A stretch of 64,000 nucleotides of DNA from a virus. Taxonomy: Duplodnaviria > Caudoviricetes. The notes beneath the pieces were generated by a model, which saw nothing but the letters and a program-made list of their open reading frames with translations, searched no databases and was not told the origin of the DNA. Below, piece after piece: positions 6,178-12,929 of this stretch. The stretch lies in the IMG/VR virus record IMGVR_UViG_3300017585_000267, positions 41,239-105,238 of that record. One strand, 5' to 3'. Both the position numbers and the translations under genes were made by a program. Each line of letters begins with the position of its first letter. The first letter of the stretch is position 1.

Positions 6178-7637
6178 ATCGCACCCTCCCACATCTCGGT
6201 CCCTACAATCCCCCTGTCCATCTCCGAGGCCTCATGGGTCATGAACCTTACGCCCTTGTATTTGAAGGCTTCGGGAACCGGGTCATCCACAATCCTGAGG
6301 ACGACTCCCTCCCTGGGAACCTTGTAGTCGCACATGGGCTCATTTTCCTCAAGGTGGAACATTCCCTTGAGTTCCCCAAAGGCCCTTTCCGGGAAGGATT
6401 CGTCTTGATTGATGTCTGGAAACAGGGCTTCACAGGGGCCAGTCCACAGGATTTCAATGGGCATCAGGATTGGGTGGGTTCCCATGTTCCCAACCGTCCA
6501 CTCCCTCACCTCGTCCACGCCCCACTCCCTCTTGGTGCCGTCGGAACTTTCAGTGGTTATCCTATAAGGCATCAGCCTGCACTCGCCCCTCCTGCAACCG
6601 TAGTCATATCCCTGCTGTATGAAGGTGCCTGTGCCGGGGAGGTAGCCTACTATCTCGCCATAGAGGGACATCCCCTCCGGGATTATATCCTTCAGCTTCT
6701 CCGCCACATGGCTCCAAACGTCCACGTCATAGTAGCTTTTGGCGCCCTTGCAGACCCACCTGTTCTTTATGACGGTGCGCGAGGACCAGATGTACCTGTA
6801 ATCAACGATGAAGTCCTCCCTGCGCAATGAGGGGAACGCCCTTGAAAGGAAGTTGCCGATGCACCTCACCAAGGAGAACCCCTTGGGAATGCGGCACATC
6901 ACGTTGGCCAGGATGACACTTGTGCCATGGAGCTTCGTAGTGATCACCAAATTGTTGTCAGGCCTGAGCACCCTTCCGAAGTTCTTCCCGAGGGGCTGCG
7001 TGTCGTAGTGGAACATGAACTCCCCGGGGATTATGGTGTCGAACCTTTTCAGCCTGTTGTTCCTTTTATCCTTAGGAGCCTTGAAGGACTTCTCCACCTT
7101 ATAAGGCAGGTACGCCTGCACGAAGAGCCTCCCGTCCACGGTGTCGAAGTCCTCCCCTACGTGTGACGTAAAGTCATAGCCCTCGAGCTTGGGGCAATAG
7201 CGCACAAGCTCCCTGGTGGTGAAGAGGCAGCCGAAGGACTGTACCCCACGGAGCTTCACCGTCCTCACCCTGCAACTCTTGGTGAAGTAACCGGTCATTC
7301 CCCGAAGCCTCCCCTCAAGTTCCCTTCTATCCCCCTCTTCCTTGGATTTCCGCATCGCCTCCTCGACCTCAAGCCACTCGCGGTAGTTGGCGTTCCTCTC
7401 GGGCTTGTCGAAGAGGTTGTTCACCCTGAGGAATTCATGGGACAGCTGGCACTCGTTCGATGCGTAGAGCATCACCTCCCCCTCCTTCACGCGGTCCTTC
7501 CTGACCACGGTAGGCTGGCCAGCTATGTCCACCACCCCAAGGAAGTCGGATCCTTCGATTGGGGTCACCTTGGGTATCCTCACCAAGGTGCAGCAGTACT
7601 CATGCGAGCCTGCGCTTGAAAAGCTTATAAGTTCCAT
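6174..7637 (-). CDS. ATP-dependent RNA ligase (Rnl5/DRB0094-like)
   Basis: Motif I TKLHGTS, WSSRT, LYGEIVG, REGVVLR, FKYK; N-terminal PIEGSDFL module. Confidence 0.85.
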   Translation of the reverse strand: MELISFSSAGSHEYCCTLVRIPKVTPIEGSDFLGVVDIAGQPTVVRKDRVKEGEVMLYASNECQLSHEFLRVNNLFDKPERNANYREWLEVEEAMRKSKEEGDRRELEGRLRGMTGYFTKSCRVRTVKLRGVQSFGCLFTTRELVRYCPKLEGYDFTSHVGEDFDTVDGRLFVQAYLPYKVEKSFKAPKDKRNNRLKRFDTIIPGEFMFHYDTQPLGKNFGRVLRPDNNLVITTKLHGTSVILANVMCRIPKGFSLVRCIGNFLSRAFPSLRREDFIVDYRYIWSSRTVIKNRWVCKGAKSYYDVDVWSHVAEKLKDIIPEGMSLYGEIVGYLPGTGTFIQQGYDYGCRRGECRLMPYRITTESSDGTKREWGVDEVREWTVGNMGTHPILMPIEILWTGPCEALFPDINQDESFPERAFGELKGMFHLEENEPMCDYKVPREGVVLRIVDDPVPEAFKYKGVRFMTHEASEMDRGIVGTEMWEGAI

Positions 7638-7808
7638 ATGGCAACAGTTGTCGTTTATGCCGTGACTATAAAAAATAAAAAAATAAAAAACAAAAAACAA
7701 GGGGACACGGCAAGCCGCATCCCCCAGAAAGCGTCGACCAGTTTGTGGAAAACAAACAGGACGTTTAAAATTTTTAAAGTTAAACAGTATTCACCGGCCG
7801 ACGCCTTG

Positions 7809-7877
7809 AAGGGACGGCAGGGGTCGAACCTGCGTCTCCCGAAAACCGGGGCTCTCTCCCAATTGAGCTACGTCCCT
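7809..7877 (-). ncRNA. tRNA-like element with truncated anticodon arm
   Basis: Perfect acceptor AGGGACG/CGTCCCT, D arm GCTC/GAGC, T arm GCAGG-TTCGACC-CCTGC, but the anticodon arm is only CCCGGTTTTCGGG. Confidence 0.75.
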
Positions 7878-7884
7878 TGGCAGA

Positions 7885-8166
7885 CTATGCCTGCACTCGA
7901 ACGATGTCCTCCTCACCGGGCCTCTCAAGCGTTACGAGCTGAGCCTTCGAGAGGTCAACCTTGTCCCCCACCCCAAGCTCGGAATCCCTGGAGAGCGGGA
8001 TATAGGTCTGTCCGCCCGCCTTCATTATGAAGCATACGCTGTTCCCATACTGGGAAGCCACCACTTCCGCGCTCTTCACCGAAGAGATCTCCTCGGCGTC
8101 AAATGACCGCAATGACTTCACGCTCCAGTTTCCGGCGTAGCTCTTGAGGGTCGAAAAGATGTTCAT
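7885..8166 (-). CDS. 93-aa protein, paralog 1 of 3
   Basis: MNIFSTLKSYAGNW...VKSAEVVASQYG...MKAGGQTYIPLS; clearly aligns with 11954-12235 and 12509-12790. Confidence 0.85.
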   Translation of the reverse strand: MNIFSTLKSYAGNWSVKSLRSFDAEEISSVKSAEVVASQYGNSVCFIMKAGGQTYIPLSRDSELGVGDKVDLSKAQLVTLERPGEEDIVRVQA

Positions 8167-8638
8167 AAGTTTCATCGCCAATGCCCTTTGGACTTGTTTT
8201 GGTACCTGGCTCACCTGTTGTTGTTGTTAAATGTAGTACTGAGGAATACTTCCGGCTGGCGCCGTACCCCAAATATCGGGGAAGTGTAATGGGCAGGTGT
8301 CGCTCTATGCGGCTCCCATAAATCCACGTTTCACTGGAATACAGTTCCCCGGGCCTTCCACATGACGGCTGTATGGAACATAAAACGGCGGCCATGCCTC
8401 AAATGGAGTACTTCTTCGACAATGCCGACGTCCGTAAAGCCAATGACTGAATGGGCGCATTTTTCCTAAAAGGGAAGCACAAAAATGCCGGATGCGGGCC
8501 TGGGGTTCCCCATGAATGCCAGGGTACAGGCAGTAAAGTCGGGAAGAAATGGGTCGGGGGAAGGGATTATGGGGAAGAGCCGGGGATGAAGGGGATGGAA
8601 GACACTGTGAAACAATTTGCAAGTTTAAAAAAAAGTGT

Positions 8639-8646
8639 TATATTTG
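8639..8646 (+). promoter_or_regulatory. Bacteroidota sigma-A promoter -7 box
   Basis: TATATTTG with TTTG about 20 nt upstream; no credible ORF downstream. Confidence 0.75.
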
Positions 8647-8650
8647 CGGT

Positions 8651-9105
8651 TGCCTTAGACTACTAGTGAAAGTCTACACACCCCCCGAAGGTATGCGACA
8701 CGACAAGTAAGGGGAGAAGGTGGCTGGTAAGGGAGGCAGATGTGACTGATACAGAATACGTTACAGAAACAAGCTGCAAACATATCCCTGAGATATTGCT
8801 GCCAAGGGCAAAAAGGTTCTTTGATATAAGCATGGTCCGTTGCTGATGCACTCTAGAGACGCTGAGGGAAAAACGGGATCGAGATAAAGACCATTAGGTG
8901 TAATAACCCGCCCATGTGAAGTTCAAGGAATAAGCTGAAACCCAATGGGTTCAGAAAGGGAGACGGTTCGTCCCCCTGGGTATACAGGTATCCTCTCTTC
9001 AGAGAGGTTCTTAAAAAACAATCTGAATCAACAAGCAACAGTTTCAACATTCTCCCCCGGTGATAACACCTACCCAAGAAGAAGAGAGGATGAGCCGGGG
9101 GGCCT
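8651..9105 (+). ncRNA. Candidate large structured ncRNA A
   Basis: Follows a promoter, no plausible ORF; many helices (TGCCTT/GAGGCA, TAGACT/AGTCTA, ATGGTC/GACCAT, CCTCTC/GAGAGG, CCCCCGG/CCGGGGG). Confidence 0.5.
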
Positions 9106-9230
9106 ATTGTCATAACCCTGGTGAAACGTCCTTCAAGGTAGGTTTCAATCTCGAGACTAACTCACTGATACTCAATAAATTATAACTACTATTAGTGATA
9201 GTTGAAAGTTAATATGGTACTTTCGGCTTA

Positions 9231-9385
9231 ACGAATGTGCCATATTGCCATTTACTAATGTGGCATATTCCTTAAGGTGAATACCCCATGTAGGTTGTTT
9301 AAGCATTTTTCAATACCCCGACTCACGAATGTGCCATACTCGTCACGTCGACTTTGCCACTTAGGAGTTCACGAATATGGCACTT
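9231..9385. repeat. Four iteron-like direct repeats (ACGAATGTGCCATA consensus) next to an AT-rich tract
   Basis: Copies near 9231, 9253, 9325 and 9371. Confidence 0.6.
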
Positions 9386-9489
9386 AAGTCGATGACGCCT
9401 AATTTTGGCCAAAATCATCCGATTTTTATCGACATAAAGGATTCACTTAGGAATTCCCCCTCCCCTGGATGGATTCCATGCCGCATATA

Positions 9490-10097
9490 CCTATTATATA
9501 TAGGAGTCCCCGGGCAGGGACATCATACGGCTGGGGCGGGAGCCCAGGGTGGTGGCGAATAATCCCCCCACAGGGTTTCGTCCTCCATGTCGCCCATACC
9601 TATTATATATATAGGCATGAAATTCCATCTACTCCTATTATATATATAGGAGTCCCGGTTACGGCCAAACCCAAGCTACACCTATTATATATATAGGAGT
9701 CACAGGCCGGCCACTCCTATTATATATAGGTACAGGTCCCAGGTTATACCTATAATATATATAGGTGCGGTGTCGTGGCTATACCTATAATATATATAGG
9801 AGTGTCGGCATCCATGTCCCGGTCCATATACTTATATTATATATATAGGAGTGGGACTGCCACTACACCTATTATATATGGGGCCACAGCCCTGCCCACT
9901 CTTCATGGTCATGGAGTCCAGGCCATACCTATTATATATAGGGATTCCTGGCCAGGCGATACACCTATTATATATAGGAGTGCCGGGCTTCCCATACCTA
10001 TAATATATATATAGGTATCCAGGCCATGGTCGAACCCGGACTACACCTATTATATATATAGGTGTGTCAGGTCGGCCATACCTATTATATATATAGG
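9490..10097. repeat. Array of 14 palindromic CCTAT(W)(AT)nAGG repeats with unique spacers, mostly 18 or 30 nt
   Basis: Repeat starts 9490, 9599, 9634, 9681, 9716, 9749, 9784, 9831, 9868, 9928, 9964, 9997, 10046, 10081. Confidence 0.95.
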
Positions 10098-10164
10098 CAT
10101 GGGACCATGCCGTCGCCTGTAGTGGAAAATCAAAAAAAGACTTGCAGGATTGAAGAATCCTTCC

Positions 10165-10172
10165 TATATTTG
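10165..10172 (+). promoter_or_regulatory. Bacteroidota sigma-A promoter -7 box
   Basis: TATATTTG with TTG at about 10142. Confidence 0.75.
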
Positions 10173-10177
10173 CGGCG

Positions 10178-10511
10178 ACTCTGGGAGGAGCTGCATCCTC
10201 AGCCGTGCCGAGCCACCCCCTTACGGAAAGGGTCTAACAGGGCTGGTACAGACATCGGGTCGAGAATGGGAGCCGTCCCGATACGGAAACATATCCCTGC
10301 CTCGTAGCCAACTGCCCCGATACCAGAGAAACCGCAGGTTGCCATGACCCCAGCTCGACACCATTGTGCAGCTTATGGAAAAATGGTGTCCACGAACAAA
10401 CGTGGAGGCAATGCCAGAACCCCAGGCGGGAAACGCAACCGAGCAATGGCGATGAGACTTTGACGAGGAGCCAGGGTCTCCAGGCAGGTTTCAGGCGATT
10501 TATTTTTTTTT
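10178..10511 (+). ncRNA. Candidate structured ncRNA B
   Basis: Promoter upstream, T-run at end; helices CTCTGG/CCAGAG, GAGGA/TCCTC, ATCGGG/CCCGAT, GACACCATT/AATGGTGTC, CCACG/CGTGG, GAGACTTTG/CAGGGTCTC. Confidence 0.55.
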
Positions 10512-11426
10512 CGACCTGAGCGTGCCAGGGGGCTCCTTTGCGAAAGAGAGTTCTATTCACTGACGTTCATAGAAACTCTTGCCTTTCTTGATTCAGGAGC
10601 CCTTCCCCCTCACTCCAGCTCCACACTCCTGGGTACGCAGTTCATAAGTACACAGTTCAGTCAATCAGCCAATCAGTTGGTTGGTTCAGTTGAAGGAACC
10701 CAGGCTGTGGGGAATCAGGGTTCACACAACGGCTCTCCTGGGCAGGTGTGGCTGTGTCGACTCCCCGGGGGGAGGACCCCCCGGCCCCCCCCGGAAGCGA
10801 GTGTGGGTGAATAGACATCTTGTCCGCTACTTGGGTACTGCTGAGGTACTGGTTCGCTTGGATGCACCACTTGAAGGGACCAAGGCTGTATGGTGGCGGG
10901 GTTCGCCCACTCCTTCCTCCCTGAGGACCCAAGGCTGAGGGCAGTCGCTTCCTGAGTGGACTCCTGGCTAAGGGTACTATGTTCACTTGGCCCTCTTGGG
11001 ATGGTCCAGTGGACACCAACCAAGTGGCCACCCCTTGGAAGGGATGTCGCCTTAAGGAACCTCCTTTAAAGGGACTTCCGGTCATAAGGAAGTGATCCCA
11101 TGAGGGCTTGGTTGGTTCTGTCCCTCCCCCGGTTAAGGCATATTCCCAGGTGCCACGCCCCTTGAGGGGACATCCTTAAGGAACTCCCTTGAATGAATCC
11201 TGAAGGGAGCCCTGTGAATGAAACCCCCAGGGAACCTCTTGAATGGACTTCACTTGAAGCAGGCCGCTTCATTCACTCCTTGAGGCCACTATGGGGACTG
11301 TCCTTTGGGAGCCTGCATTATTCCCCACCCCTGCCCCATGCCCCCTCCCTGTGAAGCAGTCTTTGCCGTCACGACCCTTGCAAGTCTGGCCGATGTTCAC
11401 TAACTTTGTACAAAACCTAATGGCAC

Positions 11427-11858
11427 ATGCGAACTAAGGAAAGATTCTGCTTCATGTACCCAGACGGGATGTCGAGGCTCCTCAGGGGACGCCTGCTCGA
11501 CCCGGCAGCCAAGGTCCTCCTGGGGCTCACGGGATACCTCGGGTACAACACCAACGTGGTGAAGCTCGACCCCATCAGGAGGACCTCGCTGGCTAACTCA
11601 TGCAGGATACCCAGGACCGCTCTTGACGACGTGCTGGCCGCCCTTGTGGGGGAGGGGGTGCTGGGGATGCTGGATGGGGACACCTACGTCATGGACAAGT
11701 CCCTCTTCTGGAAGGGGGACCTCAACTCAAGGGACGCTCTGAAGATGAAGGACCTCGGGAGGACCCTTGCAAGCTCACTCGAAGGAGCCTCCGTCCCGGT
11801 GGACCTTCCTGACACGGGAGGCTACTGGCAGCCGGATTCCTCGTTTGAACTCCGGTGA
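11427..11858 (+). CDS. RepL-like winged-HTH protein
   Basis: NTNVVKL..RRTSLA...ALDDVLAALVGEGVL...YVMDKSLFWKGD pattern; own promoter TAACTTTG at 11401. Confidence 0.7.
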   Translation: MRTKERFCFMYPDGMSRLLRGRLLDPAAKVLLGLTGYLGYNTNVVKLDPIRRTSLANSCRIPRTALDDVLAALVGEGVLGMLDGDTYVMDKSLFWKGDLNSRDALKMKDLGRTLASSLEGASVPVDLPDTGGYWQPDSSFELR

Positions 11859-11953
11859 AAAAAAATAAGGGAGCGACCCCATAAGGGGCCACTCCCACTG
11901 AAAGAAAAAAAACAAGGGACGCAGCCCGCATTGGACTGCATCCCCTGTACTTT

Positions 11954-12235
11954 TTAGGCCTCGACCCTCACGATGTCATCGCTGCCATCCCTGTGGAGGG
12001 TAATGAGCCTCGCCTTGGTGAGGTCCACGGAATCCCCTACGCCCAGGCTGCTCTGGTTGGAAAGCGGAATGTAGGTCTGCCCACCCGCCTTCATGAAGAA
12101 GCACACGGAGCTGCCGTACTGCGAGGCGACCACCTCCGCCGACTTGACGGCATTGATTTCCTCAGCCTCGAATGCACGGGATCCAGTCACGTTCCAGTTG
12201 CCAGCGTAGGTCCGCAAAGAAGAAAAGATGTTCAT
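11954..12235 (-). CDS. 93-aa protein, paralog 2 of 3
   Basis: Aligns with paralogs; followed by hairpin plus T-run terminators (11860-11945). Confidence 0.85.
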   Translation of the reverse strand: MNIFSSLRTYAGNWNVTGSRAFEAEEINAVKSAEVVASQYGSSVCFFMKAGGQTYIPLSNQSSLGVGDSVDLTKARLITLHRDGSDDIVRVEA

Positions 12236-12508
12236 GATGTTTGTGATTTAAGTTGTTAATGATGAATGTTGACTACGGGAACCCTGTGTTCCCGCAAAAA
12301 CCCGGGAAGTGTAATGGGGTGGGGGTTCCCTATGGGACGCCGCCTGTGGAATGCCTGCCGACGGCGCTCCAACATGCAGACGTCGCTTCAGCCAGCCTTC
12401 CCTGTCCCACAAAAGGACGCCGCTCCCACTTGTCGTCGTTGCCGCCAGGCTTTAAAAAAATAAGGGGAAGAGGCCCGAAGGCCCCTCCCCCATTGCATTG
12501 AGACTGGC

Positions 12509-12790
12509 TTATGCCTCGACCCTCAGAATGTCCGCCTCCCCGTCCTTGGAGAGCACGACCAGCTTGGCCTTTGTGAGGTCTATGGACTGACCCACGGCTG
12601 CGGAGGCATCCCTGCTCATCGGTATGAACTTGGAGCCTCCCGCCTTCATCATGAAGCAGCAGGACGTCCCGTATTGGGACGCCACCACCTCGGCGGACTT
12701 CACTGCGTCTATCTCCTCTGCTGAGAAGCCCCTCGTTTCCTTTACGTTCCAGGATGCGGCATAGGTCTTGAGTGAATTGAAGATGTTCAT
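12509..12790 (-). CDS. 93-aa protein, paralog 3 of 3
   Basis: Aligns with paralogs; terminator at about 12453-12490. Confidence 0.85.
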   Translation of the reverse strand: MNIFNSLKTYAASWNVKETRGFSAEEIDAVKSAEVVASQYGTSCCFMMKAGGSKFIPMSRDASAAVGQSIDLTKAKLVVLSKDGEADILRVEA

Positions 12791-12929
12791 AATGTTTGAA
12801 ACCCACTTACAACTGTGTCTCCACAGAGCCTTAAAGGGTACTGGCTTTTGGTTTACGGAATAATGTTTTGGGGAATACCTTATGTAAGGACAGCCTGGGC
12901 CTTCCCCTGGACCCAGGCCATCCCGAAAG

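Follow-up and report, generated by a model that had tools for sequence, protein, structure and literature searches.

A RepL-like gene with phased upstream repeats as a candidate replication-origin or copy-control region in a crAss-like phage

Does the ORF-poor DNA around a RepL-like gene in a crAss-like phage work as a single system, and what might it do? The locus lies in a 64-kb window, the whole stretch of DNA analysed here, which corresponds to bases 41239-105238 of a 105,238-bp virus record (IMGVR_UViG_3300017585_000267; complete according to CheckV); all coordinates without a contig name are those of the window. An earlier note on this DNA had described a tRNA-like element, three paralogous 93-aa genes, two promoter-led non-coding RNAs (ncRNAs), iterons, a spacer array, a palindrome-rich tract and a RepL-like gene, and had proposed that these parts act together. 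All of the listed elements are present at the positions described (Table 1). We find that the locus is composite. A RepL module forms its core (~9.2-11.95 kb, plus strand), and the sequence evidence suggests that this module is probably an iteron-type origin or copy-control region of RepL with transcription running through it.

A divergent RepL-like gene

The gene at the downstream end of the core encodes p143, a protein with a codon score of 0.31 that has no match in Pfam or PHROGs and that returns itself alone in sequence searches. Its relationship to RepL emerges through related contigs, which are given here by L numbers. The product of an antisense gene in L107 is 32% identical to p143 over 101 residues (BLASTP E 7e-15), and a family profile built from 20 sequences that exclude p143 aligns to it with hhalign at a probability of 96.4% (E 1e-9). 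The family profile has at least 334 members, mostly tagged with the Pfam RepL family PF05732. The L107, L109 and L128 proteins match PF05732 at 22.8, 22.9 and 36.7 bits, respectively (cut-off 20.3), the homologue in Dulem virus 41 carries a RepL annotation, and the L128 member is 31% identical, over 87% of its length, to the 'replication/maintenance protein RepL' of small Bacillus/Priestia plasmids. Taken together, the similarity of p143 to the L107 protein, the profile match, the PF05732 matches of the family and the link to plasmid RepL mean that the label 'RepL-like' is correct as remote homology, without a direct Pfam match. By these homology criteria, p143 belongs, as a divergent member, to a family of phage RepL-like proteins with matches to both Pfam RepL and plasmid RepL. 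An AlphaFold2 (AF2) single-sequence model of p143 has the core order H-beta-H-H-beta-beta (mean predicted local distance difference test score (pLDDT) 50; core ~70). We found no second RepL copy in the genome; the tract ahead of the gene is free of pseudogene remnants, whether of RepL or of its neighbours, and ORF197 of L131 is not RepL-like.

The tract ahead of p143, which had been described as ~3.2 kb poor in open reading frames (ORFs), is indeed so: between 8215 and 11426, none of the ORFs that reach 50 aa has the codon usage expected of a gene. The codon log-odds of all such ORFs are at most 0.07, the mean for shadow ORFs being -0.20, and recoding TAG as Q or TGA as W yielded no convincing ORF, the modest ones including several that run over the repeat array. 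Promoters are concentrated here. The full Bacteroidota promoter form TTGCA-N16-18-TAnnTTTG has five sites in the genome, three of which lie in this region on the plus strand and point toward RepL (P_A, P_B and the RepL promoter, P_repL); the other two lie at the strand switch.

P_repL also carries a sequence shared with the iterons. The iteron core 9-mer ATGTGCCAT has three copies in the 105 kb, at 9235, at 9329 and, inverted, at 11420 on the minus strand; the third (11420-11428) lies between the -7 box and the RepL start and overlaps the start codon. The test for an iteron-related site on the RepL promoter was chosen after the data had been seen. By analogy, an inverted iteron core at the RepL start is the classic layout of an autoregulated iteron replicon.

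The same observation bears on a different explanation, in which the locus would be a transcriptional switch: the RepL-like protein would act as a repressor or activator, and the repeats would be operators of P_A, P_B and its own promoter that time a plus-strand island within a minus-strand gene block. The 9-mer on the RepL start is operator-like, the tandem dyad repeats of relatives lie 36-190 bp upstream of the gene, which is a typical operator position, and MarR/AdcR-type repressors are the sole, weak PDB sequence matches of the family profile. Promoter control, however, needs far less than a 900-bp spread of 14 palindromes and over six iteron copies that lies 1.3-2.2 kb from the gene, and the plasmid homologues are replication/maintenance proteins. 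We regard a switch as unlikely, and it would not be exclusive, since iteron replicons combine autoregulation with initiation (PMC6854812).

Phased repeats upstream of RepL

The four direct iteron copies have spacings of 23, 71 and 46, which give an 11.7-bp period (R 0.98), and they sit at an AT-rich minimum, with a GC content of 34-41% at 9100-9450 compared with ~54% for the genome. The palindrome array beyond them is the most repetitive spot of the 105-kb genome and contains all genomic TATATATA and (TA)4 tracts. The palindrome search pattern gave 15 matches (two of which overlap in one palindrome), compared with 0.21 expected. Gaps between successive palindromes are 94, 18, 30, 18, 18, 18, 30, 18, 45, 21, 18, 30 and 18, and from centre to centre the distances are 35, 47, 60 or 110 bp, which fits a lattice of 11.8 bp (R 0.81; a simple null model gives p ~0.0008). 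This period of the array also suits the four iterons, and the combined set of iterons and palindromes stays in phase. This shared lattice therefore favours recognition at the level of DNA.

A repeat-and-spacer array behind a promoter can also be read at the level of RNA. P_A would then transcribe the array into a precursor that is cut into guide-like RNAs, as in a Cas-less counterpart of clustered regularly interspaced short palindromic repeats (CRISPR), or transcripts A and B would form a ribonucleoprotein with the 93-aa proteins, whose predicted fold gives weak matches to the oligonucleotide/oligosaccharide-binding (OB) fold. Strong promoters ahead of ORF-free DNA, quantised gap lengths and a conserved block of ~115 nt in transcript A all fit this idea, as do the OB-fold matches. 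Nevertheless, the spacers are diverged duplicates of a four-palindrome block rather than unique inserts, the repeats measure just 15-19 bp and have a middle made purely of A and T, the transcripts have ordinary fold energies and no Rfam match, the lattice takes in the iterons, which points to DNA recognition, and the 93-aa genes occur in ~30 loci without an array. Action at the RNA level is a remote prospect. We rejected a CRISPR-like array as such, using as the criterion repeats of ~23 bp or more with unrelated spacers of uniform length: the spacers here are 18 or 30 nt and align between the three blocks. No Cas-like protein was found among the neighbouring ORFs, to which the scan against Pfam and PHROGs was limited.

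The array was clearly built by duplication. Its blocks are co-linear with identical 18-30-18 gaps, and matching spacers are still partly similar. Such a history, and the fact that the array is unique to this genome among the public contigs searched, would suit a non-functional expansion, in which recombination-prone, fast-evolving filler gained its (TA)n palindromes by slippage and block duplication. Yet the palindromes were retained while the spacers drifted, which indicates selection on the sites; moreover, TATATATA is absent from the other 104 kb and the promoters are full-consensus. We consider this the least credible of the explanations. The exact palindrome gave single chance matches in IMG/VR, and a search of metagenomes with the paired-palindrome pattern returned unrelated simple repeats with no genes in common.

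Nearer to the gene, the three tandem dyad units of the window occupy the position of 21-bp repeats in RepL relatives. Tandem repeats with a period of 17-26 bp were found within 1 kb upstream of RepL in seven of ten lineages (TRF), and the density of TRF repeats was 0.81 per kb in this interval compared with 0.08 per kb elsewhere in the same loci. Two to four tandem repeats of ~21 bp lie directly upstream of RepL in L107/L137, L109, L128, L139, L102 and Dulem virus 41; the last has two clusters of three repeats and two dyads in ~1 kb of non-coding DNA. L149 carries, instead of tandem repeats, a 27-nt inverted-repeat pair with TA-centred cores. The repeat units are lineage-specific, usually with a dyad core and often TA-centred palindromes, and the L109 unit resembles the palindrome unit of the window. 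Phased repeats upstream of RepL are a family trait.

These comparisons also bear on whether the array serves another machine, for instance as a centromere for partition (sopC/parC-like), as a pac site for packaging or as a sink for a nucleoid protein such as HU/IHF, with RepL next to it by chance. Evenly phased palindromes at 35 and 47 bp do resemble centromere arrays, the palindrome unit differs from the iterons, and the ends of related contigs beside the 93-aa cluster could hint at genome termini. Against this, neither ParA (AAA_31) nor ParB_N was found in the 105-kb genome, the search being limited to those partition families; the ends of this contig itself are ~50 kb away; and TA-centred palindromes directly upstream of RepL in L109, Dulem virus 41, L143 and L149 tie this kind of site to RepL. 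A different machine is improbable.

An origin or copy-control region is the function that the module probably has. Several features expected of an iteron origin are present: a number of phased repeats lie by the putative initiator gene, an iteron-related site lies on the RepL promoter and AT-rich DNA is adjacent. In the mechanism that we propose, RepL dimers would bind the iteron copy on their own promoter and start codon, resulting in autoregulation, and would also bind the proximal 25-bp dyads and the distal iteron cluster. The lattice of 14 palindromes could provide further RepL sites or an easily melted element of the handcuffing type. All of the sites would face the same side of the helix, given the 11.8-bp period, an arrangement suited to a wrapped nucleoprotein complex. 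The strong host-type promoters P_A, P_B and P_repL would transcribe through or toward this field, either to activate the origin, as in lambda, T7 and P1 oriL, or merely to express RepL. The whole would then amount to an origin or copy-control region of iteron type, such as has been put forward for crAssphage as a phage-plasmid.

Several observations weigh against an origin. Phage RepL-like proteins, here putative initiators, could be repressors. PF05732 itself does not match p143 at E<=0.1, nor at E<=10 in a six-frame search of the genome (cut-off 20.3 bits), and the N-terminal third of the family is missing from p143. The 14 palindromes are unlike the iterons and the proximal dyads, and the three repeat classes are mutually unlike; because they differ in sequence, one protein may not bind all of them. 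The array lies 1.3-1.9 kb from the RepL gene, farther than in any relative, and we found no close relatives in which conservation of the array could show. The lattice statistic uses a simple null model, and block duplication also explains regular spacing. DnaA boxes are present in many iteron-type origins, although not in all; here they are not enriched, with one one-mismatch site in the region and 12 in the window, compared with 10.8 expected. Finally, cumulative GC skew reaches its minimum at the strand switch, 7 kb from the locus.

A more far-reaching version of the proposal can be formulated. The locus would be a complete plasmid-type replicon in a Steigviridae-like crAss phage, with RepL, three classes of site and a transcription-activated origin; the palindrome lattice would be a new handcuffing/copy-control or centromere-like element that leads to persistence as a phage-plasmid; and, separately, transcript A and the OB-like 93-aa proteins would form an undescribed RNA-protein pair. 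We consider this version doubtful.

Table 1. Features of the locus, in window coordinates
Feature	Position	Strand	Basis or details
Intrinsic terminator closing the 93a and tRNA-like unit	7700..7725	-	GC hairpin then T-run; last hairpin of the fold
Long hairpin trailer between tRNA-like element and terminator	7730..7806	-	~15-bp stem
tRNA-like element, truncated anticodon arm, no anticodon	7809..7877	-	Rfam tRNA, 45.9 bits
93-aa paralogue a (93a)	7885..8163	-	Frame open back to GTG at 8214; codon score 0.26
Conserved upstream element (core CCATTACACTTCCC, then -7-like box)	8267..8316 (93a); 12292-12341 (93b)	-	Repeat family D7, 50 nt
Promoter P_A (TTGCA-N16-TATATTTG, Bacteroidota sigma-A type)	8618..8646	+	Proximal half kept in L131
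ORF-free transcript A, 3' end undefined; conserved non-coding block 8876-8992	8652..9190	+	Promoter and no coding ORF
Iteron cluster, ACGAATGTGCCATA-like 14-mers	9213..9389		Four direct copies (9231, 9254, 9325, 9371) and inverted copies
14 TA-centred palindromes, CCTATWATATATA(TA)GG	9490..10097		Three diverged copies of a four-palindrome block
Promoter P_B (TTGCA-N18-TATATTTG)	10142..10172	+	Near-identical promoter in L131
ORF-free transcript B, or first part of a long RepL leader	10180..10511	+	Promoter and no coding ORF
GC-rich dyad/repeat tract	10650..11300		14-mer at 10694, 10875, 10924; 52-nt duplication 10677-10728 / 10858-10909
Three tandem ~25-bp dyad units	11172-11245		-241 to -182 from RepL start
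RepL promoter (TTGCA-N18-TAACTTTG) and inverted iteron-core 9-mer at 11420-11428 on start codon	11378..11428 (promoter 11378-11408)	+	Pattern search
RepL-like gene, putative winged helix (p143)	11427..11858	+	143 aa; 134 aa from the later Met picked by a gene caller
Two terminator hairpins between RepL and 93b	11869..11948		Hairpin scan
93-aa paralogue b (93b)	11954..12235	-	Codon score 0.35
Terminator of 93c	12464..12491	-	Hairpin scan
93-aa paralogue c (93c)	12509..12790	-	Codon score 0.45

Elements outside the RepL module

The genes that flank the module on both sides appear to have a life of their own. The three 93-aa paralogues are mutually 66-73% identical, have gene-like codon log-odds of 0.26-0.45 and each possess their own hairpin terminator. 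The element with the CCATTACACTTCCC core has two close copies in the 105-kb genome and two weaker matches with two mismatches elsewhere, and 93-aa genes in L006 have a comparable motif ahead of them. The element may serve as a dedicated promoter or as a leader. The 93-aa family has more than 800 members, none of which is named. Tandem genes (2-4 copies) occur in ~36 crAss-like contigs, with ~30 loci having no RepL nearby, and RepL without a nearby 93-aa gene was seen at seven loci (L137, L139-L143 and Dulem virus 41). L107 and L109 repeat the order 93-93-RepL(antisense)-gap-93, and in L128 93-93-RepL can be followed up to the contig end. Recurrence of the 93-93-RepL order beside independent occurrence therefore suggests a favoured insertion site, not an obligate unit. 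We conclude that the 93-aa genes are, to judge from their distribution and signals, an independent multi-copy family, separately promoted and terminated, that stands outside the RepL module.

An AF2 model of the 93-aa protein (pLDDT 85.6) shows a small beta-barrel with one helix. Foldseek found no match for it in the PDB, VIA-align returned mostly OB-fold binders of single-stranded nucleic acid (Z <=4.3), and a structure search of the Atlas found a viral Dual-OB family at a TM score of 0.63. The models thus hint weakly at an OB-like fold, which we treat as a lead only.

Two observations concern the surroundings of 93-aa genes in other phages. In a related phage, a 93-aa gene is followed ~630 nt downstream by a RAGATH-1 hammerhead ribozyme (L115:6910-6986, plus strand; 85.8 bits). 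Several Kolpuevirus-like IMG/VR contigs (L097/L120, L127/L129, L111, L116 and L125) start or end within ~1.5 kb or less of their 93-aa genes, and two such contigs have a 93-aa gene at both ends; these ends may be genome termini or an assembly break point.

The tRNA-like element is predicted to belong to the 93a transcription unit. Its acceptor, D and T arms fit the tRNA model and a cloverleaf appears in the fold, and the standard 5-bp stem and 7-nt loop are not present: the anticodon arm consists of a 4-bp stem and a 5-nt loop, with 3 nt where the Rfam model has the 7-nt loop. ARAGORN did not call the element because of this short arm. The fold of 7690-7884 on the minus strand has a z of -2.96. 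Counterparts lie downstream of 93-aa genes in L002 (9092-9203), L004 (9076-9187) and L113 (7061-7142); across this family the acceptor stems co-vary, and the anticodon arms vary between a 13-nt stub and a 46-nt insert. The copy in the window is ~170 nt from an RNA ligase gene. In another related crAss-like contig, a transfer-messenger RNA gene (74 bits) adjoins tRNA genes (L122:9782-10086, plus strand).

As for the two ncRNAs, which are predicted only from a promoter followed by ORF-free DNA, both of these features are confirmed. Transcript B ends at a T9 run (10503-10511) that is the only one in the genome; it lies in the loop of a weak hairpin, with no canonical terminator hairpin. Fold stability was not unusual for transcripts A and B and the GC-rich tract (z -0.4 to -1.3), and Rfam 15 searched over 7600-12900 at E<=1 gave the tRNA match and one chance microRNA match, with none for transcripts A or B; at gathering thresholds, too, the tRNA-like element was all that Rfam matched. 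Between the upstream element of 93a and P_A there is a G-rich purine tract (8500-8610, plus strand; GC skew +0.55 to +0.65, many G3-5 runs).

Transcript A contains the ~115-nt non-coding block, which recurs in L131 (6655-6772, minus strand) and L146 (9991-10111). Similar strong promoters stand 220-410 nt upstream of it in the two phage lineages, which are otherwise unalignable. A three-helix consensus can be drawn for it, from only two sequences and with no covariation; the L131 counterpart has no Rfam match, and a covariance model of the block (R1), run over 44 sources, matched only the window and L131/L146. With promoters like P_A and P_B as well as the block, L131/L146 have more in common with the window than other relatives do. 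This lineage has no array and no RepL between its 93-aa genes, RepL being ~20 kb from the 93-aa cluster. As the block is kept there with RepL ~20 kb off, transcript A and its conserved block are therefore a separate non-coding unit, not part of the RepL module.

The proposal of a single system thus survives in part. Cooperation in a replication or copy-control module is plausible for the RepL-like gene, iterons, palindrome array and plus-strand promoters, as suggested by the phased repeats upstream of RepL in relatives and by the 9-mer on the start codon, whereas the 93-aa genes, the tRNA-like element and transcript A fall outside. The earlier note had looked to co-occurrence and synteny across crAss-like genomes: the gene order does recur in L107 and L109, but relatives have 93-aa genes, tRNA-like elements and part of transcript A where RepL is absent, and RepL occurs without them. 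Independent, unlinked occurrence in relatives, which the note had named as refuting its proposal, is what these parts show.

The genome around the locus is that of a gut crAss-like phage, as identified by a Crassvirus major capsid protein (E 1e-202), muzzle and cargo proteins and a portal. A DNA search of GenBank phages gave cr126_1 (Kolpuevirus, Steigviridae) as the sole named relative, the match being confined to a 93-aa gene, and queries with p143 and the RNA ligase found no close relatives in IMG/VR or JGI metagenomes. L107 (IMGVR_UViG_3300020011_000226, 117.5 kb) is classed as a provirus by IMG/VR, and the capsid protein of its genome is 67% identical to that of the window phage. A minus-strand gene block at ~1-16 kb encloses the locus, with the strand switch and the cumulative GC-skew minimum near 16.8 kb. 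The first 5 kb of the genome, outside the window, has a GC content of 59-64% compared with ~54% overall and is the second most repetitive region.

Comparison with known replicons

The locus bears on how crAss-like phages start DNA replication and persist as plasmids. It adds a hidden, highly divergent RepL in another crAss family and lineage-specific phased palindromic repeats at RepL genes across these phages. It also removes a false lead, the array not being CRISPR-like and the 93-aa genes lying outside the module, and it defines fragments that can be tested: the iterons, the palindrome lattice, the operator and the promoters.

P1 oriR (incC-repA-incA), mini-F, R6K and pSC101 are iteron-type replicons whose iterons fall into split clusters and whose rep gene is autoregulated. 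The locus resembles them in having several clusters of phased direct repeats about the rep gene, AT-rich DNA and, at the rep promoter, an iteron that is partial or inverted. It differs from them in having a RepL protein, putatively a winged helix, instead of Rep_3, no DnaA boxes and a function that is predicted; its largest cluster consists of perfect TA-centred palindromes at 35/47 bp rather than 19-22-bp direct repeats. A closer parallel in logic is plasmid pIGRK, whose helix-turn-helix Rep protein (RepR) binds a conserved region as well as iteron-like repeats at the origin and is a repressor of its own promoter (PMC6854812). The same logic, shown experimentally in pIGRK, may apply to the window, the likeness of the pIGRK/pHW126 family being one of layout; unlike the window phage, pHW126-family plasmids are small and gammaproteobacterial and carry four iterons. 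The RepL of small Bacillus/Priestia plasmids (PF05732) is homologous to the phage family, and p143 is linked to it only through the phage family profile.

The nearest precedent lies within the same group of phages. RepL-adjacent origins have been proposed for Carjivirus communis, the prototypic crAssphage, and RepL has been listed in 19 more Crassvirales (Schmidtke et al., bioRxiv 2024, PMC10983915); iterons are not described there, and the RepL profile named is PF01719, compared with PF05732 here. Like crAssphage (PMC10983915), the window phage has a plasmid-type RepL, a non-coding putative origin directly upstream and a local GC skew near zero. Unlike crAssphage, it is Steigviridae-like and has one RepL copy rather than two, with a sequence too divergent for Pfam; its RepL lies inside a minus-strand block between 93-aa genes, not at a strand switch, and its upstream field extends over 3.2 kb with three repeat classes. 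Together, these comparisons suggest that the locus is most likely an unusually large form of the RepL-origin region already proposed for crAssphage, rather than a new kind of locus.

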